Shown here: positions 8,676-55,666 of the stretch, piece by piece | Layout of the letters: each line of letters starts with the position of its first letter | How positions within the stretch are numbered: position 1 is the first letter of the stretch | Assembly: GCA_964473025.1 (NCBI GenBank) | Contig: CAYYMZ010000001.1 | Span: forward strand, 24,163 to 88,162 | Source: an uncultured Candidatus Saccharibacteria bacterium | Lineage (GTDB): Bacteria; Patescibacteriota; UBA1384; DTJR01 | DNA: 64,000 nt | Direction: 5' to 3' | Program-made: the position numbers and the translations under genes | The notes under the pieces: model-generated | Databases searched by the model: none | What the model was told of the DNA's origin: nothing | What the model saw: the letters and a program-made list of their open reading frames with translations, nothing else

Positions 8676-8736
8676 TCAGCTGGGTTGACTCTAAAGTATT
8701 ATCTGATAGTTTATAAAAAAATAGCAGAGGTGAAAT

Positions 8737-13372: not shown

Positions 13373-13637
13373 TTCCTTTGCTCTTTTCCTGGTTTTCTTT
13401 CTTCTTACGCAAACCGGAGAAAAATCTGATGATCCGGCTTCCATAGACCTTTAAAACATACCCAGCGCCAAGCCCGGCGCCGATTAAAATCTGGATAATA
13501 TAACTTCCCGTACCAGGGTCAAGATAAGCGTGGGCGTTTTTAATTGGCACAAGACATAACAGCAACAAAAGCAGAAACGGCGATTTCACACGCAAGGTGT
13601 TTATTTTTAATTTTGAACGAAATTTAATATCCGACAT
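13350..13637 (-). CDS. small hypothetical membrane/secreted protein
   Basis: 95 aa, hydrophobic stretch LLLLLLCLVPI and GAGLGAGYV; SD-like gaggg 10 nt upstream; overlaps 5' end of upstream ORF, so uncertain. Confidence 0.3.
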   Translation of the reverse strand: MSDIKFRSKLKINTLRVKSPFLLLLLLCLVPIKNAHAYLDPGTGSYIIQILIGAGLGAGYVLKVYGSRIIRFFSGLRKKKENQEKSKGNELKKSK

Positions 13638-13719
13638 CTTTTTGCCCTCATTTATTAGATAGAATCCAAACTAGCTGTTTTTAAAGGTAACACAAATTTG
13701 AGTATTTTCAACACCGCGG

Positions 13720-15409: not shown

Positions 15410-16324
15410 ATGAAACAGAAAATTGCAATCTTAGGGGTAGGGGGAATGTTAGGTTCGATGGTTTTGGATGTCATAGCTCAAGACACAGATTTTTCAATAA
15501 TCGCCACAGTCCGCGATTTGAAAGAAACGAAAAAATTGAAAAAATATAAAAACGTTGTTTTTCGTAAGCTTGACGTCGAGTATGCCGCCACAGACATGCT
15601 TCAGAAGGCGCTCAAAGGCGCCAAATGGGTCGTAAACTGCATCGGCATTATCAAGCCCTATATTCATGATGATAACGCGGTAGAAGTCGAAAGAGCGATC
15701 CGCGTTAACTCGCTCTTTCCCCATAATTTAGCTACGGCGGCCAAAAAGAATAAAGCCAAGGTCATCCAAATCGAAACCGACTGTGTTTATTCGGGCAAAA
15801 AAGGCAAATATACAGAAAGCGATCTACATGATGCACTGGACGTTTATGGCAAAACCAAATCAATCGGTGAAGTTTATTTTGATAATATGTACCACCTCCG
15901 CTGCTCGATTATTGGTCCAGAGTTAGCCGGACATCTTTCCCTGTTAGACTGGTTCTTGACCCAACCGGAAAATGCCAAACTGAATGGTTATCAAAATCAT
16001 CTCTGGAATGGTGTTACGACTTTGCAATTTGCCAAACTTTGCATCGGGATTATCAAGAAGGATATAAAGATTAATCATCTCCAACATATTATTCCGACGG
16101 GCAAGATTGCCAAAAGCGAAATGCTCAAGAGTTTCGCCAAAGAATTCAATCGTTCTGATATCGAGATTACGCCTGTTAATGCACCGAAAGTGGTTGACCG
16201 AACTCTCACAACCGAAAACATAAAAATAAATGAAAGAATCTGGAAAACAGCCGGTTACAAGAAAACCCCAACAGTCAAGGAAATGATAAAAGAGTTAGCG
16301 CAATATAAAATGGTGGTTGAATGA
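15410..16324 (+). CDS. NAD(P)-dependent sugar-nucleotide reductase/epimerase (RmlD substrate-binding-domain family)
   Basis: KIAILGVGGMLGS Rossmann motif; ~305 aa; start at internal Met (MKQKIAIL) preferred over track start 15353. Confidence 0.6.
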   Translation: MKQKIAILGVGGMLGSMVLDVIAQDTDFSIIATVRDLKETKKLKKYKNVVFRKLDVEYAATDMLQKALKGAKWVVNCIGIIKPYIHDDNAVEVERAIRVNSLFPHNLATAAKKNKAKVIQIETDCVYSGKKGKYTESDLHDALDVYGKTKSIGEVYFDNMYHLRCSIIGPELAGHLSLLDWFLTQPENAKLNGYQNHLWNGVTTLQFAKLCIGIIKKDIKINHLQHIIPTGKIAKSEMLKSFAKEFNRSDIEITPVNAPKVVDRTLTTENIKINERIWKTAGYKKTPTVKEMIKELAQYKMVVE

Positions 16325-17412
16325 AAGTCTTGACAATACTTGGAACCCGTCCCGAAATAATCCGACTTTGTTTAATTATTAAAAAATTAGATTCTCTTTG
16401 CGACCAGGTTTTGGTTCATACCGGACAGAACTACGACGTCAATTTAAATGAAATATTTTTGCGTCAGCTCGGCGTTCGCAAAATGGATTATCACTTTAAC
16501 GCAACTGGAACCCCCGCCGAGCAGATAGGCAAAATTTTAGTTGAGCTTGAAAAAATCATTAAGAAAGAAAAACCAGACCGGTTCCTGGTCTTAGGCGACA
16601 CTAACAGTTCGATTGGCGCTATTATGGCCAAACGGCTTCATATTCCCGTCTATCACATGGAGGCGGGCAATCGATGTTTCGATGACCGCGTTCCCGAGGA
16701 GGTTAATCGCCGGATCATTGACCATTCAAGTGATATTTTAATGCCTTATACCGAGCGTAGCCGCCAGAATCTTTTGCGCGAAGGCATTGCGGGGCAAAGA
16801 ATTTATGTAACAGGCAACCCGATTAAGGAAGTGCTTGATTATTTTGCTGAAGATATCGATGCAAGCCGAGCGATGGAAAAATTCAAAGTCGAAAAAGGTA
16901 AATTCTTTTTAGCAACGCTACATCGCGAGGAAAATGTCGATGTTGAAGAACGGCTTGCAAGATTTGTGCAGGCCTTCAACAAATTGACCGAAAAATACAA
17001 AATGCCACTTATCTGGAGTGTCCACCCGCGCACCAAAAAAAGAATTAAAGCAAATAAAAAACTTAAATTAAATAAGGCCGTTTGCGCAATCGAACCGTTG
17101 GGACTCTTTGACTTCGTGCATCTTGAGAAAAATGCCTTCTGTTTACTCTCCGATAGTGGCACCGTACAGGAAGAGGGAGCGATTTTTAACGTTCCAAACG
17201 TTACGCTTCGAGATGTGACGGAAAGGCCCGAAACCATCGAAGCAGGAAGTAATTTCTTAAGCGGTTGTGAGATAGAATCGATCCTGCTTGGTGTAAAAGT
17301 AGCGGTTCAGAAGGCGGACAGTTGGGACCCGCCCAAAGAGTATCTAGTTTCTGATGTTTCCTCTAAAATTGCCAAAATAGTTCTAAGCTATAAAAAAACA
17401 GAGCAATCTTAA
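16321..17412 (+). CDS. wecB: UDP-N-acetylglucosamine 2-epimerase (non-hydrolysing)
   Basis: MKVLTILGTRPEIIRL..HMEAGNRCFDDRVPEEVNRRIIDHSSD..LHREEN characteristic WecB/MnaA motifs. Confidence 0.85.
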   Translation: MKVLTILGTRPEIIRLCLIIKKLDSLCDQVLVHTGQNYDVNLNEIFLRQLGVRKMDYHFNATGTPAEQIGKILVELEKIIKKEKPDRFLVLGDTNSSIGAIMAKRLHIPVYHMEAGNRCFDDRVPEEVNRRIIDHSSDILMPYTERSRQNLLREGIAGQRIYVTGNPIKEVLDYFAEDIDASRAMEKFKVEKGKFFLATLHREENVDVEERLARFVQAFNKLTEKYKMPLIWSVHPRTKKRIKANKKLKLNKAVCAIEPLGLFDFVHLEKNAFCLLSDSGTVQEEGAIFNVPNVTLRDVTERPETIEAGSNFLSGCEIESILLGVKVAVQKADSWDPPKEYLVSDVSSKIAKIVLSYKKTEQS

Positions 17413-34705: not shown

Positions 34706-35233
34706 TTAGGGGACATCGGGGCGGAGAGGCCGCATCTTGCGGATATCGAGACAGTCGGGTGTCTCTACCTCTGGGTCGAGGGCCCTGGCGTATTCCTTCG
34801 CATCGGCGTGCCTGACGAAGAAATAGTGGTTACCATCTTCGTTTACCGGTGTGGCAACCCTCTCGTTCATGTAGACGCCAAACGAGCCATCTAGGGAACG
34901 GGTCAGGACTTGTGCATTGAGCAGAGCCCGGTTTACATTACGCAGATCTTCTTTAGTACCACACTTGAGCAACTGCACGTAGTTTTCCCAGTCAACCCAG
35001 ACAGCGCCCGAGTGGATTAGGTAGATCTTCTTCTTGGTACGTTTGCAGTAGCTGTGGTTTCGGAATCTGGCGATGCCTCTGCTTTCAGTGCAACGCGGAC
35101 ATTTCTCTCCGGACGCTACTCGGAATTCAACATCTCTGAGGTAGAAGATAATGATTTCCTCAAACGGTCCTGTTGCCCCGCAGATGGGGCACGAGAGTGA
35201 AGACGGAGCGTTTTTGATTTCTCCGATTGTCAT
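34706..35233 (-). CDS. zinc-ribbon-containing hypothetical protein
   Basis: CPICG..(20 aa)..CPRC four-Cys ribbon; elevated GC; start at internal Met with weak SD. Confidence 0.45.
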   Translation of the reverse strand: MTIGEIKNAPSSLSCPICGATGPFEEIIIFYLRDVEFRVASGEKCPRCTESRGIARFRNHSYCKRTKKKIYLIHSGAVWVDWENYVQLLKCGTKEDLRNVNRALLNAQVLTRSLDGSFGVYMNERVATPVNEDGNHYFFVRHADAKEYARALDPEVETPDCLDIRKMRPLRPDVP

Positions 35234-35320
35234 CCTGTACCCATCCTTTCGAGTTTCGAGCGTTAGGTGACACCGAACTAAAATTATCAAAGCGAACTTA
35301 CAAACGCAATAAAAAACTTC

Positions 35321-36003: not shown

Positions 36004-36025
36004 AAATTGCCCAAAAGGGCAATTT
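36004..36025 (-). terminator. hairpin, possible terminator for UPF0182 gene
   Basis: AAATTGCCC-aaaa-GGGCAATTT perfect 9-bp stem ~90 nt downstream of stop on minus strand, T-rich flank. Confidence 0.4.
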
Positions 36026-36119
36026 CATGGCGGAGCTTCGAGATGCGGCACCCGAGAATATTTTCTGGCATATTATTTTGCGCTCGTCTTTAAAGAATTA
36101 CGCATATTGTTCAAGCCAA

Positions 36120-38849
36120 TTATTGCTTTAAAATCTCTCCCAAACGCCTGATGACCTCACCGTAGCGCGTCCAATCGCCGTCCTTTTGCGCTTGGAGGGC
36201 CTCTTCATACGCCGCCAGTGCTTTTTGTATACGCTCTTGAATATTTTGAGACGGGATCACTTGCGGTTTTGCCACCACGCCTTCTTGCGGTTCTGCTCCC
36301 GTTCTTTCATCACCAAAAATTTTAGACAGCCCCTGTTCCAGCGTCTCTTCCATGGCAATTTTATTTCCATACGCCACAATTACCCGTTTGAGCTCCGGAA
36401 TTTTACCGGCTTCGGCCTTAAGATAAAGCGGGCGCACATACAAAAGCGACTCTTCAATCGGAATAACCAACAGCGGGCCCTGAATTACCTGCGACCCGCC
36501 CTGACTCCAGAGCGTGATTTGCTGACTAATTTCGGGGTCTTGATTAATTCTGCCAATAACTTGCTTGGGTCCAAATACCAGCTTGTCTTTAGGAAAACGA
36601 TAGGCTAATAACTTGCCGTAGTTTTCTCCATCGTTGCGAGCAACCATCCAGGCGGACAAGTTGTCTTTTGCCCGGGGAGTAAATGGCAGCATCAAAATAT
36701 ATTCTTCTTGTTTCTCTTCCGGCAACTTCATAATGATGTGGCGCGGTTGCATTGATGAAACCCCGCCCGCGCGAGCTTCCCCCTCTCCTTCTGCAGCAAT
36801 AGCCGGAATTTCCCACTGGTCTTCTTTATTATAAAAAATCTGTGGATCATCCATGTGGTAGACCAAATACGCGGCGGTCTGCAGGGTAAAGATATCCTCC
36901 GGATAACGCAAATGAGAAACCAGGCTCTTGGGAATCTCTGACATCGGCCGGAATGTCCCGGGAAAAATTTTGCTATATGTTTTTATAATCGGATCCTCTG
37001 CATCCGCCTGATAAAAAACGACACTGCCATCATAAGCATCAACCACCACTTTTACCGAGTTTCTAATATAGTTTATATTACTGCCGTTTAACCGCGTAGG
37101 TTGCGAGTAAGGATAACGATCGCTGGTGGTATAGGCGTCGGCGATCCAATACACTTTGCCGTCGGCAATGACACTGTAGGGGTCTTTGTCAAAAGTCAAA
37201 AACGGCGCAATCTTGGCAATTCTTTCAGCAATATTACGCTGGTACATAATACGGCTCTCGTTCGTTATGTCGTTGGACAAAAGTATTTTAAGCGATTTAA
37301 ATTTCAAGGCGTAAAAGACGCGCCGCGCAAGTGAGTTTATTTCCACTCCGCCCTTGCCCTCATATGTTGCGTAGACATTTTCTTCGCCCTTGGGGTAGTC
37401 AAACTCGCGGGATTTTGTTTTAGTGATGACATAATCGTTAGTCAGCTCGCCGAAGTAGATTTCCGGGCGCGAAATTTCAAGCTCTTTGACATCCGATTTG
37501 GGCGGCAAGTCCTTCACAAACAAGACCGGCAATCCTTCCGGGGTAACTTGATTGACGGGCCCGGCCGCCATGCCGTATCCATGCGTAAATGTCAGCCGTT
37601 CATTAATCCAATTCCTATTTGGCAAACTGGCCGAAGCCAGTTCGCGCGGAGAGAGCATGATCTGGCGAATTTCTCCGTCTATGATATAGCGGTCATTGTC
37701 AACTTCGGCAAACTCGTAATATGTTCTGATTTCTTGTACCTGGGAAAAAGTCGACAAGAGTGGTTTCCTGTCCCAAAGCCGCACATTTTTAACCGTCAGA
37801 TTATTGTTTGCAATATCAGCCGCGGTAATTGGCTTGTCTCCCGAGATTTCTCGCTCTTCAATTTTGTCAAGCGCAAACGCCTGACGAGTAGCGGCAATAT
37901 TATGCTTAATGAACGGAGTCTCTTTTACCAGTTCATTAGGGGCAACCGCCAGTTTTTGGACAAAGAACGGAATCATCGCTCCGGCGAGTCCCACAATAAT
38001 GTAAAGAGAAATTGCTCCGATAAGCGGCGATAATTTTCCTTTCCAGGCCCAAAAGATGGCCGAAACTGCCGCAAGCGCAGCGGCGGCCATTGAGATCCAA
38101 AGCATGAATATTCTGACGGTTGCATCAGTGTATGTTGCGCCAAACACTAAACCGCCCTGGCTCGTCAGCAGCGTAAAGCGGGAGATGTAGATTCCGACGA
38201 CAATGATGGCCAGAAAAATGGCGAGCAGGATACCAAGATGGATTCGCGCTGCGCGGTCTATTCGCATTTGTTTAAATGATCGCAAGCTTGCGATATGAAA
38301 GCTACCGCGTAAAAAATATATGATCGCGCAGCCGGCAAGTGATAACAGAACGAGAAACTTTACCAGCCCTAATCCTGTTTGGAAGACCGGAAGAGAAAAA
38401 ATATAAAATCCGATATCCTTATTAAAGATGGGATCTGCCGCGCCAAAAGCCGTCCCTGAAATAAATTTCAATACCTCCTGCCAATTAGCCGCCGCTATAA
38501 GTCCGAAAAAAAGCGCGACTACCAAACTCAGCATAACGGCAAATTTCTTAACGACGCGACTGTCCACATTTACCAACTGACCGACTAAAGCTTGCGGTAA
38601 AACTGCTGTCCAGGAGATTTTTGAGCGGATCGCCAAAGAGAAGTTGACGAGCAAAAAACCGCCGACGGAAACTCCTGCCGCTGAAAACAAGATTATTCTA
38701 GTAACCAGGGACTTAATAAAGATTTGAGTGTGGCCAACCTCGGAAAACCACCACCAGTCAGTAACAAAAGCGACAATGCTTGAAAGAAAAACAAAAATAA
38801 CGAAAAACGTGATAATAACGGAAAGTTTTGTTGTTTTAAATCTATTCAT
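36120..38849 (-). CDS. UPF0182-family large membrane protein
   Basis: ~910 aa; 7 N-terminal TM helices then large soluble region with YWIADAYTTSDRYPYSQP motif recalled from UPF0182/COG1615; start set at internal Met MNRFKTT. Confidence 0.55.
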   Translation of the reverse strand: MNRFKTTKLSVIITFFVIFVFLSSIVAFVTDWWWFSEVGHTQIFIKSLVTRIILFSAAGVSVGGFLLVNFSLAIRSKISWTAVLPQALVGQLVNVDSRVVKKFAVMLSLVVALFFGLIAAANWQEVLKFISGTAFGAADPIFNKDIGFYIFSLPVFQTGLGLVKFLVLLSLAGCAIIYFLRGSFHIASLRSFKQMRIDRAARIHLGILLAIFLAIIVVGIYISRFTLLTSQGGLVFGATYTDATVRIFMLWISMAAAALAAVSAIFWAWKGKLSPLIGAISLYIIVGLAGAMIPFFVQKLAVAPNELVKETPFIKHNIAATRQAFALDKIEEREISGDKPITAADIANNNLTVKNVRLWDRKPLLSTFSQVQEIRTYYEFAEVDNDRYIIDGEIRQIMLSPRELASASLPNRNWINERLTFTHGYGMAAGPVNQVTPEGLPVLFVKDLPPKSDVKELEISRPEIYFGELTNDYVITKTKSREFDYPKGEENVYATYEGKGGVEINSLARRVFYALKFKSLKILLSNDITNESRIMYQRNIAERIAKIAPFLTFDKDPYSVIADGKVYWIADAYTTSDRYPYSQPTRLNGSNINYIRNSVKVVVDAYDGSVVFYQADAEDPIIKTYSKIFPGTFRPMSEIPKSLVSHLRYPEDIFTLQTAAYLVYHMDDPQIFYNKEDQWEIPAIAAEGEGEARAGGVSSMQPRHIIMKLPEEKQEEYILMLPFTPRAKDNLSAWMVARNDGENYGKLLAYRFPKDKLVFGPKQVIGRINQDPEISQQITLWSQGGSQVIQGPLLVIPIEESLLYVRPLYLKAEAGKIPELKRVIVAYGNKIAMEETLEQGLSKIFGDERTGAEPQEGVVAKPQVIPSQNIQERIQKALAAYEEALQAQKDGDWTRYGEVIRRLGEILKQ

Positions 38850-38904
38850 TATAACATCAACTTGAATGTAACAGCTTTTTTTTAAGTTGCAAACTTCAAA
38901 ATTC

Positions 38905-39219
38905 TTAAAAGTCCAGAGCAAAAGAGAACCGTCCCCATTTTTCAAATGCCGGACGCCCGCCGAAATAGCAAATACAGTATGGAACAAGCGAACCGAGGGT
39001 CAAGCCCAGCGCCACGGGAAGCGCGACTTGTAAAATGGCCCGATTCGCTGCTTCCGCTAGTTCTACTTGAGGGGAGAGTAAGAAAAACCCGGCCGCCATT
39101 GGCACAATCGGAGACGGTATAAAGAATACGATCTCTTCAAGGGGCGCGGCGGCAAAAACACCCGCCGGTCCGCCGCCGGAAATTATTGATTGTGTAACTT
39201 GTATAAGTTTTTCTAACAT
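38905..39219 (-). pseudogene. truncated DedA-family protein (N-terminal ~half only)
   Basis: LEEIVFFIPSPIVPMAAGFFL and GRPAFEKWGRF match DedA core but ORF stops after 104 aa; a full-length DedA is at 58608-59228. Confidence 0.4.
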
Positions 39220-39686
39220 AAAGTGTGGTTTTTATTTTTTCTTTTCTTTGCTTCCAGCGCGCGGATTTCTTTTTCATCAAAACCCAGATGGTGGCCGACT
39301 TCATGCCATACTACCTCATATATCAATTTTTTCAACTTCTTTTCATCACCACCGGCTAATTCTTCTATCGGTTGCTGAAAGATAGTGATTTTGTCTGGCA
39401 GGACGCCGAAATAATTTGAACCTCGTTCTGTTTTCGGGATGCCTTCATAAAGACCGAGCAGTACTTCATTCATTTTAATCATATTAATATTAACTTCCTT
39501 GGCTTTCTTGCCTGCCCGCCGAAGCCTTAGCGAAGGAGGGCGGCGCACTTCTCTCTCCACAACAAACGCAACATTATCCATTGCTTGCCTTCCGTGCACT
39601 GGTAGTGCCGAAATGGCTCCGCGGATTAATTGTTCAAAGTCGTTTTTCTTCACCCCGTTAGAAATTTTCTGTTTTTGTAATTTCAT
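39213..39686 (-). CDS. zincin-like metallopeptidase (DUF1025/Zn-dependent protease family)
   Basis: HEXXH motif in YEVVWHEVGHHLG; 157 aa. Confidence 0.55.
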   Translation of the reverse strand: MKLQKQKISNGVKKNDFEQLIRGAISALPVHGRQAMDNVAFVVEREVRRPPSLRLRRAGKKAKEVNINMIKMNEVLLGLYEGIPKTERGSNYFGVLPDKITIFQQPIEELAGGDEKKLKKLIYEVVWHEVGHHLGFDEKEIRALEAKKRKNKNHTLC

Positions 39687-39752
39687 AGATATTTCTTTAG
39701 TAAAATGTTTTTTATTCTCCCGCGAAATTAATAATAAGATTTCTAACGGGGT

Positions 39753-42437
39753 TCATGCTGGTATTGACGCTTTCTTTCGATAAAAGAATTTTCTTATCTC
39801 TTCTACCAAGACGATTGACAACCCGACAATAATAATTAGAATCCAATCCGGAAGGGACAAAGCAGTTGTATGTAAAATCCTCTGCATTAACGGATTATAA
39901 ACAGCCAAAAGCTGTAATGCTATCACAATAATTGTTGCCCCGACTAAAAACTTGTTAGAAAAAAATCCCATCTGGAAAATGGATTTATTTTCCGAGCGGC
40001 AGTTCCAGGCATTAAACCATTGAAAAGCTGCTAAAGTTGTCAGCGATATTGTCCATGCTTTGGCAAGATCTATCTGATAAAATCTCTGGAAAAGCAATAA
40101 TGCACCGATTGCCATCGGCATCGCCATTAGAACCATTCTCTTTGCCATTAACGAATCAACAAGGTATTTAGAAGATTTTTCAAATTTACCCTTCAGCAAC
40201 CCGTCTTCTTTGGGTTCCATTGCTAACGCCACGTCCAAAATGCCATCAGTTACTAAATTGAGCCAAATAATTTGCGCCGGCAAAATTGGCAAGGGCCATC
40301 CTAAAAACAAGGCTCCGCTAATAGTTAGGACTTCACCCACGCTGGTAGAAAAAAGATAAAGAATAACTTTTTTTATTGTTTTGTAGATTGCTCGACCCTC
40401 TTCAACGGCCGAGACAATGCTGCCAAAGTTATCATCCAGAAGCACAATGTCCGCAGCTTCTTTTGCCACCTCGGTACCGATTTTTCCCATTGCTACGCCG
40501 AGATCAGCGGCAACGAGTGAGGGAGCGTCATTAACGCCGTCTCCGGTCATCGCCACTGTTTCCCCGCGCGCTCTATACGCTTCGATAATCCTCAGTTTGT
40601 GTTCCGGCGTCACTCGCGCGAATACCGATGTTTTGGCCAATTTTTCGGAAAGTGCGGCATCAGAAAAAGTGTCAATATCTTGTCCCTCAAGAACAATATC
40701 GTCATCTTGATAAATACCGGCTTCCTTAGCAATCGCTTGCGCCGTAATTTTGTGGTCTCCTGTGACCATCACCACTTTAATGCCGGCGAAAGCCGCTTTT
40801 TGTATAGCACCCCTTGCCTCTGGCCGAAGAGCATCTTTCATGCCGAAAAATCCCGCAAAAGTAAGATCGCCAATCGTTTCTGGTTTTAGAGTTTCCTGCC
40901 CGCTCGCAAGCTTGCGTTGCAGGCGGGTTGGGTCATCATGGCTTTCCGCAAACGCGATGACCCGCAACCCTTCCCGCGACATGGAGAGAAAAACGGATTC
41001 TAATTCCTGTTTTTCTTCTTTCGATATTTGAGAGAGATTCAAAATCACTTCCGGCGCGCCGACAACTGCTAGAAATTCTTGGCCATCAAGTCGGTGAACC
41101 GTTGCGTGATATTTGAGCTTGTAATCAAACGGAATTTCAGAAACTTGTGGTGATTCTCGCTCTAAATCATCTTTATTAAGCCCCAACTTCTCGGCAAGCA
41201 TGAGCATCGCCGCTTCAGTCGGGTCGCCGGCAACGCGCCAAACTTTCTCTTCTTCCGAAAACATCACGCGGGCATTGGAGGAAAAAGCGGCAATCTTCCC
41301 CGCAAGACGAAGTTCCGGGTGATTAACTGAATCAATTACACTCCCGTCTAATCGAATTTCTCCCTTCGGCTCATAACCAATTCCGCCAACCTCAAAGAAT
41401 TTGCCGGCGGTGTATACTTTCTTAATTACCATCTCATTTTTAGTAATCGTGCCGGTTTTATCAACGGCAATAACCTTTGTTTGTCCCAACGCTTCTACTG
41501 CTTGGAGTTTCTTAACTAAAGCATGGCGCTTGCTCATTCGCCAAACGCCTGTGGCTAAAATTAAAGTCATCACAATTGGGAGACCTTCAGGGATAATTGA
41601 GACCGCCAAGGAAACTACCGTTCTAAACATCTCGGAGAGCGTGCTTCCGCGAGCAAGACCAAGAAAAAAAAGAAGCGTGCCGATACCCAAGACGGCGCAA
41701 ACAATCAAGCGCGAAAGATAACGAATATTTGTTTTAAGGGGTATCTCTGTATCAATGGTAGCGATTTCTTTAGAAATTTTTCCAATAAAAGTCTCTAAGC
41801 CCGTGGCGACAACAATCGCTTTCCCGTTTCCAGCAACAATATGAGTTCCCTTAAAAACCATATTATTTTGTTCGAAGATCGGTAAGTCAGTCGCTTCTGA
41901 TACATCGGAAATTTTGTTGACCGGTACTGACTCTCCAGTCAAAGCTGATTCATCAAGGAGTAGTTGGTTGGAAACTGAAAGACGGGCATCGGCGGGAATT
42001 TTCTCGCCTTCTTGCAGGAGGATGATATCGCCAGGGACAAGTTCGCTGTCTAGGATAATCGATTCATTGCCCTCGCGTAAAACAGTCGCCTTGGTTGTTA
42101 CAAAGTTTTTAAGGGCTAAAAGTGTGTTTTGGGCTTTTCCCTCTTGAAAAGTGCCGACAACCGCGTTAAAGAAAAGAACAAAAAGTATCAAACCTCCGTC
42201 AGTAAACTCTCTTAAGAAGAAGGTGACGATAGAGGCGGCAAAAAGGATGTAAATTAAAGGACTTTGAAATTGACGAAGAAAAATCACCAATAAACTATCT
42301 GATTTTGTTTCAGGCAGTTTATTTCGGCCGTATTTTAACAAACGATTCTTGCTTTCCGTTTCTGTTAAACCCTGAAGACTAGAGCCGAGATCAACCAAGA
42401 CGGTCGCGGCTGATTTAGTGGACCATAAATTATTCAC
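39753..42437 (-). CDS. cation-transporting P-type ATPase (type II, Ca2+/Mg2+-like)
   Basis: phosphorylation motif DKTGTIT, hinge MTGDGVNDAPSL, TGES-like actuator; 894 aa with 10 TM. Confidence 0.85.
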   Translation of the reverse strand: MNNLWSTKSAATVLVDLGSSLQGLTETESKNRLLKYGRNKLPETKSDSLLVIFLRQFQSPLIYILFAASIVTFFLREFTDGGLILFVLFFNAVVGTFQEGKAQNTLLALKNFVTTKATVLREGNESIILDSELVPGDIILLQEGEKIPADARLSVSNQLLLDESALTGESVPVNKISDVSEATDLPIFEQNNMVFKGTHIVAGNGKAIVVATGLETFIGKISKEIATIDTEIPLKTNIRYLSRLIVCAVLGIGTLLFFLGLARGSTLSEMFRTVVSLAVSIIPEGLPIVMTLILATGVWRMSKRHALVKKLQAVEALGQTKVIAVDKTGTITKNEMVIKKVYTAGKFFEVGGIGYEPKGEIRLDGSVIDSVNHPELRLAGKIAAFSSNARVMFSEEEKVWRVAGDPTEAAMLMLAEKLGLNKDDLERESPQVSEIPFDYKLKYHATVHRLDGQEFLAVVGAPEVILNLSQISKEEKQELESVFLSMSREGLRVIAFAESHDDPTRLQRKLASGQETLKPETIGDLTFAGFFGMKDALRPEARGAIQKAAFAGIKVVMVTGDHKITAQAIAKEAGIYQDDDIVLEGQDIDTFSDAALSEKLAKTSVFARVTPEHKLRIIEAYRARGETVAMTGDGVNDAPSLVAADLGVAMGKIGTEVAKEAADIVLLDDNFGSIVSAVEEGRAIYKTIKKVILYLFSTSVGEVLTISGALFLGWPLPILPAQIIWLNLVTDGILDVALAMEPKEDGLLKGKFEKSSKYLVDSLMAKRMVLMAMPMAIGALLLFQRFYQIDLAKAWTISLTTLAAFQWFNAWNCRSENKSIFQMGFFSNKFLVGATIIVIALQLLAVYNPLMQRILHTTALSLPDWILIIIVGLSIVLVEEIRKFFYRKKASIPA

Positions 42438-42622
42438 TTAACTACTCCTTGATTTAATTCTACCATAAGAAGACTGGATTAAGATAAAAGAAAAAGATTT
42501 TAAATGATTAGCTGATTTTAGGGCAAAAGTCCCAAAGCAGGAGGATTTATAAGGTTTGTCAAAAAGTTCGAAACTCAGGTACGGGCAGTGAAGGAAACAC
42601 CAGAATGGACCTATTTGCAACC

Positions 42623-42648
42623 AAAAAAGACCTTAAACGGTCTTTTTC
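42623..42648. terminator. bidirectional hairpin terminator downstream of tRNA-Ser(UGA)
   Basis: AGACC-ttaaac-GGTCT flanked by A6 and T5. Confidence 0.55.
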
Positions 42649-42704
42649 ACTTCCTGCTCCCTTTCTACTCCTTTTTTAACTTGTAAAAAGTCCCAAACTT
42701 TGGT

Positions 42705-42794
42705 TGGCGGAGAGGGTGAGATTCGAACTCACGGTGGACTTGCATCCACAACAGTTTTCAAGACTGTCCCGATAAACCGCTCCGGCACCTCTCC
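42705..42794 (-). tRNA. tRNA-Ser (anticodon UGA)
   Basis: 90 nt class II tRNA, anticodon stem ACAGT/ACTGT loop CTTGAAA, T-loop GAGTTCGAATCTC, CCA encoded. Confidence 0.9.
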
Positions 42795-42916
42795 CCGAGC
42801 CAAATTTTACCTTAAGTTACCTATAATTTCAATCATTTTGATTGCATATTTGGCTCAAAATGATATATTTATCTGTTCGTCGCATCGTTGACAATCCGAC
42901 AGGGAGGGGATTCAGG

Positions 42917-43732
42917 ATGACAATTGGCGTTGGTATTCTGGCAGGAGGTCAGGGGAAGCGTCTCAAGCAGAATGTGCCGAAAGCGGAGGCACCACTCTAC
43001 GGCAGGCCGATGTGAGCTTACACGTGCGAAGCGGCACTGGAGATTACCAGGGAGCAGATCCAAATGGTCGTGCCGGCAGGAAGGCAGATTCACCACCATC
43101 AGGTAGAGTGCCTTGATACCCGCCATTCGTACATGGGCGATCTGTTTCAGCTTGTTGAACGGGCAAGGGAAAGAGAGTACGACCGTTTTCTGGTCATCAA
43201 TGCCGACTCCGTGCTGGTGACGGCCAAATCCCTACAGAGTTTCCTGGAATTGACCGAAGGGAGCGAAGCCGGCATTATCTGGCCGGCGATCCGACGCCAC
43301 TCCATCCCAGAGATGCTCCGGCAGACGGTCTTGAACGACCTGCCGGGGAGACCGGATCTCATCCGCAGCGGGGTTATGATGTTCAGGCCAGCGTCACTTC
43401 ACCCCAAAAAGAACATTCTTCGTAAACTAGCCCGCGATCCGAACAAGATAGTGCTCAGATCGCCTCTTGGCTTACCGTTCTGGGCCTTCAGGAGAGTTCA
43501 AGCGGAGTTTTACCGCCGCTATGCCGAGCTTCCTCTTCTTGGTCTGCGCAACTGCATCATGTGGGGCATGAAACTGCTCAACACAGAGGAGATCAAGAGC
43601 TGCATGAAAAGTTGTTTGGGTTGCGAGAGGGTAGAAATGCCGGAACTGGACATCGGGGTATTCGGCTTCGACGTCGATACGCCCAAAGAGCTGAAGCTGG
43701 CAGAGGACTATCTGCGCAGGTGGGGAAGATAA
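42917..43732 (+). pseudogene. MobA-like NTP-transferase (nucleotidyltransferase) gene with in-frame TGA at 43013-43015
   Basis: N-terminus GILAGGQGKRL..LYGRPM-[TGA]-AYTCEAAL continues in same frame as 222-aa ORF; strong SD GGGAGGGG; GC-rich; stop falls where MobA homologues have Trp. Confidence 0.55.
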
Positions 43733-43741
43733 GATTAATCA

Positions 43742-43783
43742 GGGTCGAAACAAAAAGGGGTGTTTCGACCCTTTTTGTTTTTA
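43742..43783 (+). terminator. rho-independent terminator
   Basis: GGGTCGAAACA-aaaagggg-TGTTTCGACCC 11-bp stem followed by TTTTTGTTTTT. Confidence 0.75.
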
Positions 43784-43854
43784 TCCCCCTTCGCAGAAGA
43801 CCTCGGATTATATCCGAGCACGAATAGGTCTTCTGCTTCGAAAGGATTGCATAA

Positions 43855-44647: not shown

Positions 44648-47233
44648 TTATGAACTGATTTCCGGCCATTTAGCCGAAATCAGATTTTCGCTATCTTTAA
44701 ATTCTTTTGGAATTTTCTGCCATATGGTTTCGGTCACATAGGGAACGAAGGGGTGGAGCATTTTGAGAGAATCAATCAGAATCAAAACAAGCTTCGCCCT
44801 GGCCGCAGTGCAATCTTCTGCCAGGTCGCTTTGCAGCCGGGGTTTAGCTTCTTCAATCATTATATCAGCAAACTCGTGCCAAATAAAGTCGTACAATAAT
44901 TCTCCAGCGCGCGAGAAGTGTAACTGGTCTAAATGCTTGGTTGTTTCTATAATTACTTCATTGAATCTGACCAAATCTTTTTCGTCTTGTTTTGACCATT
45001 TGGCATTTGAGCTTAGAGCTTCATTTGTTATTTGGGTTTTGTCATTTGGGTTTTCCAGGTTCATCAAAACGAACCTTGAGATATTCCAGATCTTGTTTGA
45101 AAAATTGCGATAGCCCTTGATTTTTGACTCTCCGACGGCAATATCGTTGCCGGCGGTTGTGCCGACGATTAGCGACATTCGAACGGCATCGGTGCCATAT
45201 TTTTGGGCAACATCGAGCGGGTCCAAAACGTTGCCGAGCGATTTGGACATTTTGCGGTTCTGTTCATCGCGGACCAGGCCATGCAAATAAACCGTTTCAA
45301 ACGGCGCCTTGCCGGTTAATTCCAGTCCCATCATAATCATCCGCGCAACCCAGAAAAACAGGATATCATAGCCCGTTTCCATGACGGTTGTTGGGTAAAA
45401 ATATTTATAATCTTCGGTTTCCTTGGGCCAGCCCAAAGTCGAGAACGGCCATAATCCGGACGAAAACCAAGTGTCTAACACGTCCTCCTCCTGCGTCCAG
45501 TTCTCGATGTCTTTTGGTGGCTCGGCACCGACGTAAATGTCATCCTTGGAAATTTTCAATTTTAAATTTGAAATTTTTAATGAATTTTCAATGTCAGAAT
45601 TTTGGAACTTGTCACGCACAGTGAAATCATAGGCATAGATATAAGCATCTGTATCGGGATTAACTTCTTTTTCCGGATTATGAAATTTGAAGGCCTCGAT
45701 CAGTTGCCCGACATTGTCATAAACTGCTCCGTGAGCTTTGTCCTGAAGGGGCAGATCTTTTACTTTTGTCTTTGTTGATTCGGTTATGATTCCAAAGCCA
45801 AAAATTTCACTGGTGGCGCTATTCTCAAAATAAACCTTATCTCCAACTTTAAGTTCGTGATTGCGGATGCGATACGTTTTAGTTTTACCAGCTAAAATTT
45901 GCGGAACTACTCTTTCCGCAATCCCCATCACCTTCAATTTTAAATTTGAAATTTTAAATTTTAAATTCGCATCCTGTTTACGGTAGTAAACAGGCATGCG
46001 ATGTCCCCACCAAAGTTGTCTCGAAATACACCAGTCACGGATATTATCCATCCAGTGAAAATAAACTTTTTCAAATCTTTTGGGCGTAATTTTGATTTTG
46101 CCTGATTTTACGGCCTTTTTAGCTTTTTCAGCGAGTGGTTTCATCTTCACAAACCACTGTTTCGAGGGGATCGGCTCAATTTGTCCGTTGCACCTGTAGC
46201 ATAAGGCGATGTTGTGTTCGTAGTTTTCCTCGATATGGTCGATCAAGCCCATCTTCTGCATATCGTCGACGATTGTCTCGCGCGCATCACGGGTTTTCAT
46301 GCCAGCGTATTTGCCTGTATTTGCCATCATGCGGCCGTTCTCGTCGATAACTTGCTTCATTGCAACGTTGTGCCGTTGGGCAATTTCAAAGTCAACTAAA
46401 GAATGTGCGGGTGTCACTTTGATAGCACCGGTGCCAAATTCCGGATCAACGGCATTGTCTTCAACAACGATAACTTCGAATTCTCCCAAAACGCCTGGAA
46501 TCATATATTTTTTGCCGACCATATCTTTGTAGCGCTTATCTCCCGGATGAACGGCAACGGCGGTATCACCGAGTTTGGTCTCAGGTCGGGAGGTTGCTAA
46601 GACAAACGGGCCGTATTTTATCCAATACAATTTCCCTATCTCTTTTTTGTATTCCACTTCATCGTCGGCGATGGCGGTGTGACAGCGCGGGCACCAGTTG
46701 ACAGTACGAAGTCCCCGATAGATTAATTTTTTTTCATAAAATCGGACGAATGCTTCATTGACGGCATCGGACATGCCTTCATCTAATGTAAATCTCTCGC
46801 GGCTCCAGTCGCAACTTGCCCCCATGGCGCGAAGCTGATGGGTAATCTCCCCGCCAAATTCGTTTTTCCATTCCCAAATGCGCTTGACGAATTCCTCACG
46901 GCCGAGATCTTTTTTAGTTTTGCCTTCTTTGCGGATCTGCTTTTCCACTACTGCTTGAGTGGCGATGCCAGCGTGATCGGTGCCGGGGAGCCAGAGAGTC
47001 GGTTCGCCCTTCATTCTGTGATAACGGGCCAAAATATCTTCCAAAGTAATAAACATGGCGTGGCCAATGTGCAATTTACCCGTTACGTTTGGCGGCGGCA
47101 TCATGATGGTGAAGGGCTTTGCCTTAGGATCTATTGTTGGTGTAAAGGCACCCGATTTTTTCCACAGAGAATAAATATCTTGCTCGGATTCCTTCGGGTT
47201 GTAGGTTTTGTCTAGATCCATGGTTAAATCCAA
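44648..47233 (-). CDS. valS: valine--tRNA ligase with an inserted ASCH-like domain
   Basis: HIGH motif PPPNVTGKLHIGHA, WCISRQLWWGHRMP, DVLDTWFSSGLWPFSTLGWP, KMSKS; 861 aa. Confidence 0.9.
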   Translation of the reverse strand: MDLTMDLDKTYNPKESEQDIYSLWKKSGAFTPTIDPKAKPFTIMMPPPNVTGKLHIGHAMFITLEDILARYHRMKGEPTLWLPGTDHAGIATQAVVEKQIRKEGKTKKDLGREEFVKRIWEWKNEFGGEITHQLRAMGASCDWSRERFTLDEGMSDAVNEAFVRFYEKKLIYRGLRTVNWCPRCHTAIADDEVEYKKEIGKLYWIKYGPFVLATSRPETKLGDTAVAVHPGDKRYKDMVGKKYMIPGVLGEFEVIVVEDNAVDPEFGTGAIKVTPAHSLVDFEIAQRHNVAMKQVIDENGRMMANTGKYAGMKTRDARETIVDDMQKMGLIDHIEENYEHNIALCYRCNGQIEPIPSKQWFVKMKPLAEKAKKAVKSGKIKITPKRFEKVYFHWMDNIRDWCISRQLWWGHRMPVYYRKQDANLKFKISNLKLKVMGIAERVVPQILAGKTKTYRIRNHELKVGDKVYFENSATSEIFGFGIITESTKTKVKDLPLQDKAHGAVYDNVGQLIEAFKFHNPEKEVNPDTDAYIYAYDFTVRDKFQNSDIENSLKISNLKLKISKDDIYVGAEPPKDIENWTQEEDVLDTWFSSGLWPFSTLGWPKETEDYKYFYPTTVMETGYDILFFWVARMIMMGLELTGKAPFETVYLHGLVRDEQNRKMSKSLGNVLDPLDVAQKYGTDAVRMSLIVGTTAGNDIAVGESKIKGYRNFSNKIWNISRFVLMNLENPNDKTQITNEALSSNAKWSKQDEKDLVRFNEVIIETTKHLDQLHFSRAGELLYDFIWHEFADIMIEEAKPRLQSDLAEDCTAARAKLVLILIDSLKMLHPFVPYVTETIWQKIPKEFKDSENLISAKWPEISS
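45556..45579. repeat. 24-nt direct repeat copy A flanking valS insertion (encodes KISNLKLK)
   Basis: caattttaaatttgaaatttttaa; second copy 378 nt (in frame) away at 45934. Confidence 0.8.
45934..45957. repeat. 24-nt direct repeat copy B flanking valS insertion
   Basis: caattttaaatttgaaattttaaa, 23/24 identical to copy A. Confidence 0.8.
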
Positions 47234-48581: not shown

Positions 48582-49427
48582 CTATGAGATGCGGTCGAGG
48601 AAGTGGGGATCGTGGTCAAGGTGGTGCCTGATGGCGGCCGCGTCTGACTTGGAATGTGACGACACCGGAAGTGTCGGCCGCGCGAGCAGGTAGAGGACCC
48701 AGTAGGTGGCCGCGACGACGATGAGCTCGGCGGCAAGCCTGCCAATCATCATGGTGTCAGAACCAACGACCATGACTGACAGGGCTCCAAAAATCGGTGC
48801 CGCGGCTACTACTACTAACCCAAGGCCATATCGCGAGATCTTGTATGGCCTGTGTGCGATTGCGGCGCCTGTCATACCCCAGAACAGACAGCCGAACAGA
48901 GCAAGTGCAGGCCAGAGCAGGTAAACCAACGCGAAGATCTCCCCATTCAGATTCGCAAGATGGGGGAAGATTCTTTGTGCAAGGTAGTGAACCGCGAAGG
49001 AGCTGACAAACAGCGTCACCCATCCCACCGCAGTCAGGACCTTGATCAGCTTGAAACTGACCCGCTCGAGGTCGCCCTCGACGATGCGGATTGGGTCTGC
49101 CGTAGTGTGTAGGACCCAGGCACCAATCGCCGCGGCGCAGAACAGCCACCCGCTGATGGCATCCCAATAGACGCCTATGCAAACAGCCGCTATTGCCAGT
49201 ACTGCCAGCGTACTGATGCAAATCCCGTTGCCCGCCAGTTCGTGCTTCCCTGACTTGATCTCGAGTCCATTGAGGATGTAGGTAACGACGCGAAGGGGGA
49301 TCAGGCCAACCAGAATTCCGGTGGCCATGGCCCAAAGCGGCGGATGAGGCAGGCGAAACGCGGCGATTGAGACGTAGGCGATGGCCGCGTAAATCATCGC
49401 GTAAATCAGAAAACGCCTGAAACGCAT
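48582..49427 (-). CDS. hypothetical polytopic membrane protein (GC-rich islet)
   Basis: 281 aa, ~8 hydrophobic helices; ~58% GC. Confidence 0.5.
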   Translation of the reverse strand: MRFRRFLIYAMIYAAIAYVSIAAFRLPHPPLWAMATGILVGLIPLRVVTYILNGLEIKSGKHELAGNGICISTLAVLAIAAVCIGVYWDAISGWLFCAAAIGAWVLHTTADPIRIVEGDLERVSFKLIKVLTAVGWVTLFVSSFAVHYLAQRIFPHLANLNGEIFALVYLLWPALALFGCLFWGMTGAAIAHRPYKISRYGLGLVVVAAAPIFGALSVMVVGSDTMMIGRLAAELIVVAATYWVLYLLARPTLPVSSHSKSDAAAIRHHLDHDPHFLDRIS

Positions 49428-49445: not shown

Positions 49446-49901
49446 TTACGGTCCTTGCCGATCAAGGACTTCGACGTCTTCAGGGCTGTAGACATCTTGC
49501 TCGGGAGAAACCGCAGGTTCTTCGGTGGTGGGTTTTGCCGCTTCGTCCCAGACGAGGCAACCGAGGATGGTTGCGACGATGGAGATGGATGGAATCAATG
49601 TCCAAGCAAGCCATGTTCTTCCCCCAGCAAGGCCGGCGACAAGCGTCTCAACGCCCAAGACCGCCACAATTGTTGCCACGGCAGCGACCCGGGCAGCATA
49701 CTCGTCGAATGTGCTAGAAGGATTGCTGGTCATCCAGAACCAGAGCCAAACGCAACCAGCCCCAATCAGCACCCCGACGGCGATTTTGCCTTCGATGGCA
49801 CCCGCTGCTCCACCGGCAATCCAGCAGAGGAGTCCTACTAAGTATGCGGCTAGTAGGCTTAGTATTGCTCCCTTTACGAACGGTTGAATCTTGTACCACA
49901 T
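49446..49901 (-). CDS. hypothetical membrane protein (GC-rich islet)
   Basis: 151 aa, 4 TM, acidic C-terminus. Confidence 0.45.
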   Translation of the reverse strand: MWYKIQPFVKGAILSLLAAYLVGLLCWIAGGAAGAIEGKIAVGVLIGAGCVWLWFWMTSNPSSTFDEYAARVAAVATIVAVLGVETLVAGLAGGRTWLAWTLIPSISIVATILGCLVWDEAAKPTTEEPAVSPEQDVYSPEDVEVLDRQGP

Positions 49902-51143: not shown

Positions 51144-51683
51144 TTACATCATCGCGTCGTTCGGATCGCCTGCGAGCTGGGAAAGGTCGGCCACTAGCCC
51201 TTCTCTCCGCGGGTTCTTCGGCTCGAATAGCCCGACCGCATCGGAGCCGGCGACCAGTTCGCCGACTTTAGCAACATCGCCGTTGAGGGGGAACCCCCAC
51301 GGCGGTGGGAGAAAGTCCCCACCCCCGCAGATTTTGTTGCCCTTCTCGTCGTAGAGGAAGGTCTCTGCCGGGTGTGATGGTGTCGAGATGCGCCGGGCAA
51401 AGGAGGCGATTTCCTTGAGCTGCTCCACGGATCTCATCCGATCCACTTGCAGTAAGATTGCCATGGTGGCGATGAGGCCGGTTGCGACGAAGCACGCTCC
51501 TTGGACGACCCAGTAGAGATCGGCTAGCCCCGCGAAGAACAGTGTGAAGATTCCGACTGGCAAGAGAATCCAAAACAGCCGGCTTGCCAACCTTCCCATG
51601 CGAGCGTAATGGTTCCACCACGCCCGATAGTGGGTCTTACTGTAGTGCACGCCCCGATCTACTTCCTGCATTTCAGCAGCCAT
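51144..51683 (-). CDS. hypothetical membrane protein (179 aa, GC-rich)
   Basis: two TM helices then soluble domain. Confidence 0.45.
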   Translation of the reverse strand: MAAEMQEVDRGVHYSKTHYRAWWNHYARMGRLASRLFWILLPVGIFTLFFAGLADLYWVVQGACFVATGLIATMAILLQVDRMRSVEQLKEIASFARRISTPSHPAETFLYDEKGNKICGGGDFLPPPWGFPLNGDVAKVGELVAGSDAVGLFEPKNPRREGLVADLSQLAGDPNDAMM

Positions 51684-53926: not shown

Positions 53927-53939
53927 CTTGAGTTTAACT

Positions 53940-54750
53940 TCTAGTTTCTAAAATGGTCTGGACACCGGACGTGACGGGGATGTCGCGTCCGGTGTCCTTG
54001 GGGAGGAGGCCGTTCCTGCAGTCTGCAGTCAGGTTTGGCCTGGAACCGATGAACCCGAGCCAACAGGATTCATCGTCGCTGCCTCTTGGGAAGGCAGCAA
54101 AAATGGGCGAGCAGCAAGTTCCCCCCGGAAGCAAGCTGCTCGCACCGAGTCGGTTTTGGGGCAGCCAGGAGGGGTCGGGGCCCCTAACCGACATCTCAGA
54201 TGATGGCAGCCGGTGGCAAAACCGGATGATCAGATGATGGGATGATCGGAGATGGTTTGCCACCGGAGCGATACGGAGTTAGGAGGAAGATGGCCGGACC
54301 GGACAGGTAGGGATTTGGAAGCTCGGAGCCAAGAACTATCCTTTTACCCTTTTCGCCGCGGTGCGGCACCCTTGTCCGGTCCGGTGCGGTTGCCAGGGTT
54401 TCCCCCAGCGCCCTCGAGGAGGTTCAGGATTAGAAAGAAGTGCGACCGGATAAACCCCTGGTCTGGGTAGTCAATTTGTGAAACCCAGGGCGGTGTCCGC
54501 TCCCGTCAACCTCCAAGCTGCCATAGTCGTGAGGTGCCTAGAGATTGAGCGAACGCCGTTAACACAGGCCCTATCCGGAGGACCTCCGGTCCCCATAAAA
54601 CCGGAGATTTTGGGGCAGCCGGAGCTCTGGCCTTGATTCGCCTTGGCCCCGGAAATTTCAGTCGTTTCAGTGATCGTTCGCAAAGATGCGGATTAAGCGT
54701 AATTTATCATTTTCAACCCGATTTGTCAAGACAAAACAGGTCGGATTGGC
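53940..54750. other. GC-rich ORF-poor highly structured region (candidate ncRNA or decayed island DNA)
   Basis: no convincing ORF on either strand over ~800 nt; perfect 12-bp hairpin GGACACCGGACG/CGTCCGGTGTCC (53960-53996), 9-bp GCGAGCAGC/GCTGCTCGC (54106-54145), CCGGAGG/CCTCCGG. Confidence 0.3.
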
Positions 54751-54798
54751 AAAAAAAGAGCGCCCGGCCCCAGTTCTTGTAAACTGGGGCTGGGCGCT
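54751..54798 (-). terminator. rho-independent terminator (minus strand)
   Basis: 17-bp stem AGCGCCCGGCCCCAGTT/AACTGGGGCTGGGCGCT (one G-U) with T7 on minus strand. Confidence 0.7.
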
Positions 54799-54819
54799 GG
54801 GTATGACCGGTTGTAGCGG

Positions 54820-55113
54820 TCAGTGGCCGCTGGAGGTGGCCAGAAGCACGGAGCAGTTGGCGATGCAGTGACCGTTGATGATAACGGCACTGCAGCTGCA
54901 GCGACCTTCGCCGGCATTGTAGAGGCTGTCGTGGAGCGCAGTATCACCGCTGCGATAACGCTCACCGACGGTGGCCATCGAGACCAACTCGACATTGTGG
55001 CCATCGTCCTGCAGGCAGATGCCGAGGGCCGGTACGGTGGCGCCCTCCTCGTTGTAGCTATAGGCAGTCTGGTTGACGATGGCTGCTGTCGTTGTCGAAA
55101 GTCCGTTTTGCAC
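54820..55113 (-). CDS. small Cys/Ser-rich protein (97 aa)
   Basis: GTG start with SD AGGAGAG 8 nt upstream; terminator immediately downstream; C-terminal GRCSCSAVIINGHCIANCSVLLATSSGH. Confidence 0.55.
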   Translation of the reverse strand: MQNGLSTTTAAIVNQTAYSYNEEGATVPALGICLQDDGHNVELVSMATVGERYRSGDTALHDSLYNAGEGRCSCSAVIINGHCIANCSVLLATSSGH

Positions 55114-55137
55114 GAATAAATCTCTCCTGGTGTTAGA

Positions 55138-55608
55138 TTAACTGTCACAACCGCCGAGGCACTCGCCAGCGATGATCGGCAGACCGCACGTGGAGCAGAA
55201 CTTGACACCGAAACGCCTGAAGGCGCGGCGCATCACGTCGGTTCCATCGCGGATCAGCTCTCTCGCCCGTTCAGGCGAGATCAGCTCCACTTGCCCTTCC
55301 TCCAGTATCCGATCGTGCGTGCACGGCACTTCACTATCGTGCTTAGTGCAGACCATTCCGAAGACCGAGCAGAAGACGAGCTCCGGATCGGGCGGTGGTG
55401 GCTCTTCGGTCTTGACGTAGAGTTCCTCAACCTCGGCGGGCAGGGGACCGAACACGACGCTACAGTTCGGACATTGCTTCGTGTCTGGTGTGAGTGTGAA
55501 CAGGCAATTCTGGCAGATCCAGCTCCCATCGTCGAGATGACGCGGTGGTTGGATCTCAACGGGCGGTTTCACCTTAAGGGCGGTTGGTTTTCTCAGACGC
55601 CAAAGCAT
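55138..55608 (-). CDS. double zinc-ribbon hypothetical protein
   Basis: SD GGAGGG upstream of ATG 55608; CQNC..CPNC and CSTC..C..C motifs. Confidence 0.6.
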   Translation of the reverse strand: MLWRLRKPTALKVKPPVEIQPPRHLDDGSWICQNCLFTLTPDTKQCPNCSVVFGPLPAEVEELYVKTEEPPPPDPELVFCSVFGMVCTKHDSEVPCTHDRILEEGQVELISPERARELIRDGTDVMRRAFRRFGVKFCSTCGLPIIAGECLGGCDS

Positions 55609-55666
55609 GGCGATCCCTCCAAACAAATGTAGTGAACGTCTGAACTAGGATAATTCAGATCATACG

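Follow-up and report, generated by a model that had tools for sequence, protein, structure and literature searches.

Does an in-frame TGA in a conserved nucleotidyltransferase gene mark a gene that has been lost, a stop that is still read through, a trace of another genetic code, or an error of sequencing? The question is raised by a single locus in the window, by which we mean the whole stretch of 64,000 nucleotides of an uncultured Candidatus Saccharibacteria bacterium analysed here. The preliminary description of this DNA had reported a GC-rich, MobA-like nucleotidyltransferase gene with TGA at the position of a Trp codon, and had offered three explanations: a TGG to TGA nonsense mutation, acquisition from a donor reading UGA as Trp, or a sequencing error. 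We favor the first, a recent G-to-A nonsense mutation that leaves the gene inactivated or at best with trace readthrough expression, and give it a probability of roughly 0.78.

The interrupted reading frame and its signals

By translation of the window, the frame covers 271 codons on the forward strand, from ATG 42917 to TAA 43732, and its sole internal stop is the TGA of codon 33. The translation reads MTIGVGILAGGQGKRLKQNVPKAEAPLYGRPM up to that stop and AYTCEAALEI...RRWGR from there to the final one, the immediate context being ...APLYGRPM, stop, AYTCEAALEI.... The match to the Pfam domain PF12804, NTP_transf_3 (MobA-like NTP transferase domain), extends over residues 7-129 and therefore across the TGA (E 5.2e-14, with 53.2 bits where the gathering threshold is 27), and both flanks of the TGA are covered by alignments to full-length homologues. 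Since the domain crosses the TGA, the continuity of the frame is not a chance juxtaposition of two ORFs, and an in-frame TGA at a Trp position of one frame, as first described, is confirmed. Mechanical ORF calling nevertheless splits the locus into a 57-aa ORF that ends at 43015 and a 222-aa ORF that starts at ATG 43064, and gene callers give the N-terminal piece as a 51-aa product (P0066) and the downstream piece as a 222-aa product (P0001). The locus should be annotated as one interrupted gene, either a pseudogene or a possible readthrough candidate, and not as a 222-aa hypothetical protein and a 51-aa ORF.

Table 1. Features of the nucleotidyltransferase locus and of the GC3-rich ORFs (window coordinates, except for the last row, which refers to the related contig L009)
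Feature	Position	Strand	Remarks
Promoter and 5' leader, conserved	42827..42916	+	TTGCAT, 16 nt, extended -10-like TGATATATT
Shine-Dalgarno AGGGAGGGG	42901..42909	+	Read from the sequence; kept in orthologous loci
Codons 1-32	42917..43012	+	Beta-strand 1, glycine-rich loop GILAGGQGKRL, invariant Lys22
In-frame TGA (opal), codon 33	43013..43015	+	Inferred G to A at 43015, ancestral TGG (Trp)
Codons 34-271 and TAA	43016..43732	+	Remaining GT-A-type fold (predicted); invariant Asp97 (INAD), Asp252/Asp254 (FDVD)
Met50, first in-frame ATG past the stop	43064..43066	+	AGGGAG upstream; possible re-initiation site; start of P0001
Intrinsic terminator	43741..43782	+	12-bp stem (6 G-C pairs), 8-nt loop, TTTTTGTTTTT
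GC3-rich ORFs in the window	13720-14634(+), 34706-35290(-), 43064-43732(+), 48582-49427(-), 49446-49901(-), 51144-51683(-), 55138-55626(-)		
L009 counterparts of GC3-rich ORFs	5436-5963, 7884-8738, 12838-13674, 13693-14151, 15882-16682		

The signals that the preliminary description ascribed to the gene were recognized as well, namely the strong Shine-Dalgarno site, which lies 7 nt before the ATG, and a terminator of its own, with its stem followed by a T-run. The promoter is a reading of the sequence, a consensus scanner having made no call there. The leader (90 nt) is 82-92% identical to those of the orthologous loci L093, L009 and L095, whereas the first 124 nt of the coding sequence reach 65-78%, and this better conservation across lineages points to a conserved regulatory region; the terminator block (43736-43783) is 89.6% identical to that of L009. 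A search of Rfam at E<=1 with 42795-43120 gave no match, and folding of the leader part 42866-42925 gave a weak consensus hairpin only, without covariation. The GC-richness of the gene also stands: the 222 codons after the stop (43064-43732) have a GC of 0.55 and a GC3 of 0.67, compared with a host GC3 of ~0.44, and the raised GC is limited to the coding sequence, the flanks not being raised.

Protein family and fold

The description of the product as MobA-like holds for the name of the Pfam domain and fails for the families themselves. The protein scored far below the cut-offs for MobA proper (16.3 bits against 151.85 for TIGR02665 and 16.0 against 164 for NF001457), MocA (19.5 against 186.45, TIGR03310) and CofC (11.6 against 105, TIGR03552). 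IspD was rejected likewise (18.9 bits against 27 for PF01128 and 24.6 against 181.3 for TIGR00453, in both cases over the N-terminal ~55 residues only), as was GlmU (38.9 against 366.85, TIGR01173), whose C-terminal left-handed beta-helix acetyltransferase domain is absent from the 271 residues. The best sequence matches in the PDB were nevertheless GlmU (E 4.4e-6) and IspD (E 5.4e-6), again through the N-terminal ~55 residues. An AlphaFold model (pLDDT 77.1, pTM 0.78) displays a predicted GT-A-type nucleotidyltransferase fold, and Foldseek aligned it to PDB entries with a probability of 1.0 and TM values of 0.5-0.7, among them 2dpw (a hypothetical transferase of Thermus), IspD (1vpa, 2xwl), GlmU, TarI and RmlA. 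Judged by sequence and modelled fold, the protein is nearer to IspD and to the N-terminal domain of GlmU, and it is a member of the NTP_transf_3 superfamily that probably acts as a sugar-phosphate or polyol-/alcohol-phosphate nucleotidyltransferase; it is not MobA.

With IspD, TarI and the N-terminal domain of GlmU the protein has in common the G-x-G-x-R loop, Lys22, Asp97 and a C-terminal D-x-D-T-P-x-E-L motif, but besides its low scores it differs from them by ~25 extra helical residues at ~178-200, a low-confidence part of the model that P0003 and P0004 also have, and by the tiny size of its family. The likeness to E. coli MobA consists of the NTP_transf_3 domain and a G-[KR]-P-[LM]-W motif, whose Trp stands where the window has TGA; however, the window protein is ~70 residues longer and reaches 16 bits against MobA cut-offs of 152-164. 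No molybdenum-cofactor genes occur among the neighbors examined. Residues G11, K22, D97, D252 and D254 are invariant or nearly so across 24 family members.

The family is rare. A search of 5.8 billion clustered proteins returned five relatives, one of them P0001 from the same locus, and an exhaustive HMM search of 1.84 billion representatives put the family at 25 members at E<=1e-10. The family alignment had no relative among the GTDB representative genomes, a protein-based scan of JGI metagenome contigs yielded the L009/L010 orthologue only, and tblastn against 80 ValRS-anchored loci of related Patescibacteria detected only the contigs L001-L008, which are described below, and the L009/L010/L011/L092 orthologue, so the gene seems confined to a narrow clade. 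It has no paralogue within the window.

The ancestral codon and the host genetic code

Four full-length relatives (51-71% identical, with the whole query covered) have W, W, W and Y at the column of the stop, Trp being the residue in the three closest (60-71% identical). The orthologous codon is TGG in L093, L009 and L095 and TAC in L094; one G-to-A transition at 43015 thus separates the window allele from the ancestral state, and the alignments point firmly to TGG as the ancestral codon. The Trp motif of E. coli MobA given in the preliminary description proved exact (NGKPLWQHV, PDB chain 1fr9_A), and Trp stands at the TGA position in this protein as in the three closest homologues. The wider family is more variable, with W in 8, Y in 3 and F in 1 of the 23 homologues aligned with the window protein, and V, I, L or C in the rest, Cys being found in two distant members (P0012 and P0018). 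According to the model, residue 33 would lie downstream of the Gly-rich loop and just before the first helix (35-43).

By ValRS similarity the host falls within Patescibacteria, its best named relatives bearing the labels of Berkelbacteria or Saccharibacteria MAGs, which as record labels are unreliable. It follows the standard code, and its reading of TGA as stop agrees with the preliminary description: 12 of the 51 long ORFs of the window end in TGA, several of them in ATGA stop/start overlaps. One such ORF is 3986-5167, which overlaps the ATG of the next (5164-6390), both encoding glycosyltransferases by Pfam. The adjoining tRNA-Ser gene (42705-42794, reverse strand) has the anticodon UGA and reads UCA, as had also been stated, and the other four Trp codons of the nucleotidyltransferase gene are all TGG. 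When the window was scanned for pairs of ORFs joined by a single stop, the nucleotidyltransferase was the only pair with domain support, the remaining ones being adjacent genes or non-coding frames. Among 20 ORFs from the first 27 kb of the window that were annotated with Pfam, there was no release factor, and hence no RF2 (prfB).

Code 25 is the reassignment of UGA to Gly in Gracilibacteria and Absconditabacteria. The locus resembles this system and code 4, in which UGA is read as Trp, by having UGA at a Trp position of a conserved ORF in a Patescibacteria genome; it differs from both in that a single isolated codon is concerned, in that the host terminates at TGA, and in that no other conserved ORF in the 64 kb is broken by TGA. 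The locus is evidence neither for an alternative genetic code nor for a recent foreign import.

Probable inactivation of the gene

The locus displays what is expected of a pseudogene formed by nonsense mutation, a premature stop at a sense codon of the orthologues in a host that reads TGA as stop, and the remainder of the gene appears untouched. At 88 columns the other four homologues are unanimous, and the window gene departs from them at 0 of these, while the same leave-one-out test applied to the other homologues gave 4-27 departures. Its leader, Shine-Dalgarno site and terminator are intact, and G11, R15, K22, D97, D252 and D254 are all present. These observations, together with the TGG of the orthologues, support the TGG to TGA mutation that had been proposed, as well as its recency.

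The course of events that we envisage begins with a single-copy gene for a nucleotidyltransferase of ~270 residues with a GT-A fold, from a rare family found mostly in a narrow clade of Patescibacteria, which would have been inherited vertically. In the window strain, a change of G to A at 43015 would then have replaced TGG, the codon of the conserved Trp33, by the stop TGA, and, as the host code is standard, translation would end after 32 residues. Ribosomes may restart at Met50, in which case MVVPAGR would form the N-terminal start of the putative re-initiation product; from this product residues 1-49 would be missing, and with them strand 1, the Gly-rich loop, Lys22 and helix A, and, having neither the glycine-rich nucleotide-binding loop nor Lys22, it should be catalytically dead. 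As no other decay is seen in the gene or in its signals, the event would be recent, this recency being read from the lack of further damage alone. The result would be an accessory nucleotidyltransferase lost in one clonal population of uncultured Patescibacteria, a case of ordinary genome erosion.

The gene is similar to unitary pseudogenes that arise by a single opal mutation, as the stop is placed at a sense codon of the orthologues, results from a transition, leaves the rest intact as in young pseudogenes, and causes the split of the gene by gene callers into P0066 and P0001. It differs from them in having no second lesion to confirm decay, and its loss of function is what we infer.

Alternative explanations for the stop

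An ORF that is flawless but for one stop fits recent inactivation and functional UGA readthrough equally. The stop could be leaky, with UGA read as Trp by the near-cognate tRNA-Trp(CCA) or by a suppressor tRNA, so that synthesis of full-length active enzyme continues at a low level and selection keeps acting on the gene, a 'pseudo-pseudogene'. We consider this unlikely, although it is the alternative that fares best. The UGA coincides exactly with a Trp codon, and near-cognate decoding of UGA leads to the insertion of Trp; the unchanged conserved columns, the complete set of catalytic residues (G11, R15, K22, D97, D252 and D254) and the intact leader, Shine-Dalgarno site and terminator would all be expected of a working gene. 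However, a very recent mutation fits each of these observations just as well, the host terminates at TGA, and TGA is kept in no other lineage, the three closest homologues having TGG. Moreover, the stretch of 81 nt that surrounds and follows the UGA is no more stably folded than shuffled sequence (z = -0.04), which, with the absence of a match in Rfam, argues against any SECIS-like or readthrough-stimulating element.

There is a precedent in Salmonella, where pseudogenes have been documented to be translated past their in-frame stops at a low level (PMC9122581). Readthrough in that study nevertheless concerned mostly UAG, with C as the commonest adjacent base (PMC9122581), whereas the window has UGA followed by G at +4. 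A literature search on UGA readthrough in Patescibacteria gave nothing specific to this group. A readthrough product would span the stop as ...LYGRPMWAYTCEAALEITR..., with PMWAYTCEAALEITR as the diagnostic peptide. We regard as more doubtful still the reading in which decoding of the UGA at codon 33 as Trp is frequent enough for the enzyme to remain functional. If it were true, a standard-code lineage of Patescibacteria would tolerate or exploit ambiguous decoding of UGA at a Trp site, which is the kind of intermediate stage that a UGA reassignment would be expected to pass through, in a radiation in which UGA has been reassigned elsewhere (code 25).

Far less probable than a leaky stop is that the UGA has another function, either as a selenocysteine codon or as the boundary of a functional split into a 32-aa peptide and a new 222-aa protein that starts at Met50. 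Selenocysteine would be in line with the Cys that P0012 and P0018 have at this column, but these are two of 23 and distant, the closest relatives have Trp or Tyr, no SECIS-like hairpin was found past the UGA, and the position is a hydrophobic one at the start of a helix, not a redox site; a bacterial selenoprotein was accordingly rejected. The split would draw on the SD-like AGGGAG before ATG 43064 and on the presence of Met50 in three of the five close homologues, yet the 222-aa product would be devoid of strand 1, the Gly-rich loop and Lys22, and codons 1-32 show no relaxation.

It is hardly credible that the stop is an artefact of sequencing or assembly and that the true codon is TGG. Single-base errors do happen in metagenome assemblies, and one study site may underlie all of the contigs in question, but the TGA recurs in eight contigs (L001-L008) that are identical to the window across the 816-nt gene and match it at 100% over their whole lengths of 1.6-7.2 kb (7,155 nt for the longest). 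These come from the ENA assemblies ERZ27248895, ERZ27248939, ERZ27248897 and ERZ27248922, the Logan assemblies SRR8437243 and SRR8437218, and the JGI metagenomes 3300028168 and 3300028169, and thus stem from no fewer than two runs and two JGI data sets, processed with three pipelines (MEGAHIT-style ENA, Logan and JGI), some of the eight assemblies possibly sharing reads. The 5.8 billion clustered proteins held no intact (TGG) allele but only the fragments P0001 and P0066, and a search of the JGI metagenome contigs for the exact DNA pattern around the stop, with the stop codon as NNN, gave no match. The stop at 43013-43015 is therefore real, and the sequencing error considered at the outset is effectively excluded. 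Given their 100% identity, the eight contigs represent one clonal population and carry no information on the age of the allele.

Inheritance and composition of the gene

Orthologues are located at the same locus in L009, L093 and L095, immediately ahead of the same TPR gene (211 aa), and in L009 also upstream of the genes for ValRS and TrpRS; nucleotide homology to the related loci starts at ~42823-42827, just past the tRNA. Synonymous divergence (Nei-Gojobori dS, approximate and near saturation) is 1.1-1.45 for the nucleotidyltransferase and 1.2-2.4 for the TPR neighbor, a similarity which suggests that the two genes were co-inherited, and dN/dS is 0.18-0.19 and 0.03, respectively. Over codons 1-32, the comparison with L093 gave a pN of 0.14 and a pS of 0.54, with no relaxation. 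The comparisons establish synteny with the orthologues, indicate vertical inheritance of the gene at this locus, and show that in the past it evolved under purifying selection, weaker than that on the TPR gene, codons 1-32 included.

The syntenic orthologues are GC3-rich too (0.61-0.64) beside low-GC3 neighbors, and GC-richness is consequently a stable property of the gene and not the trace of a recent transfer; recent horizontal transfer as its source is ruled out by the synteny and by the TPR-like dS. The codon-usage comparison gave a correlation of r = 0.14 between the RSCU of the gene and that of the host. Known code 4 lineages are AT-rich. An origin of the gene in a code 4 donor, with the TGA as a leftover sense codon, has next to nothing in its favor beyond a composition that departs from the host bulk (GC3 0.67 against 0.44, RSCU r = 0.14) and the adjoining tRNA gene, and is contradicted by orthologues with TGG at the same locus in three related lineages, by a synonymous divergence like that of the flanking TPR gene, by TGG at four of the five Trp codons, by a GC3 opposite to that of such lineages, and by contact with the 5' end of the tRNA gene instead of the 3' end usually targeted by integrases.

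A class of GC3-rich genes and the neighborhood of the locus

The nucleotidyltransferase belongs to a class of GC3-rich, fast-evolving and lineage-restricted genes. GC3-rich ORFs (0.57-0.72, compared with ~0.44 for the rest) are scattered singly among normal genes in the window (Table 1), and most encode membrane or orphan proteins without a Pfam family. Where L009 has syntenic counterparts, these are GC3-rich as well and 42-63% identical, while their neighbors are 79-96% identical. The codon usage of the class correlates with that of the nucleotidyltransferase gene (r = 0.65) and not with that of the host bulk, and L019, the nearest GTDB relative, has the same scatter of GC3 values near 0.70. 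The high GC3 of the nucleotidyltransferase persists in four lineages in spite of a dS >1, and such lineage-specific genes, which retain their composition although synonymous divergence exceeds one substitution per site, are the more interesting by-product of this work.

Between groEL and the zinc-ribbon gene at 55138-55626, the region 53930-55137 has a GC of ~0.58 and no long clean ORF, and neither a convincing Rfam match nor homologues in the fetched loci were found for it. Its part ~54760-55137 shares the third-position GC periodicity of the zinc-ribbon gene and lies in frame directly after the TAA of the latter; 105 codons are open, then comes a TGA, and a further 50 codons follow. This part may be a gene of its own or a second case of an interrupted gene.

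Upstream of the nucleotidyltransferase, the window has ~6.8 kb (36023-42822) between a conserved 214-aa gene and the nucleotidyltransferase gene, comprising genes for a UPF0182 protein, a Zincin_1 protein and a P-type ATPase, and the tRNA-Ser(UGA) gene, where L009 (6720-7794) and L093 (332-1028) have instead a small low-GC gene for an HNH endonuclease, accompanied in L009 by a GC-rich ORF of 63 aa. Comparison of the sequences suggests that this difference is a rearrangement or indel between close relatives. Downstream, the ValRS of the window (44648-47233, reverse strand) has 861 aa, compared with 702 aa in the L009 orthologue, from which an internal segment of ~140 residues (~422-563) is missing; the segment is bordered by the near-repeats KFKISNLKLK ... 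LKISNLKLKIS, and long forms of ValRS are found at other Patescibacteria loci, such as L012 and L016. A large cluster for cell-surface glycan biosynthesis occupies 1225-23837, not next to the nucleotidyltransferase but ~19 kb away, and encodes several GT1/GT4 and GT2 glycosyltransferases, NAD-dependent epimerases/dehydratases, a dTDP-sugar isomerase, a UDP-GlcNAc 2-epimerase and FkbM-type methyltransferases.
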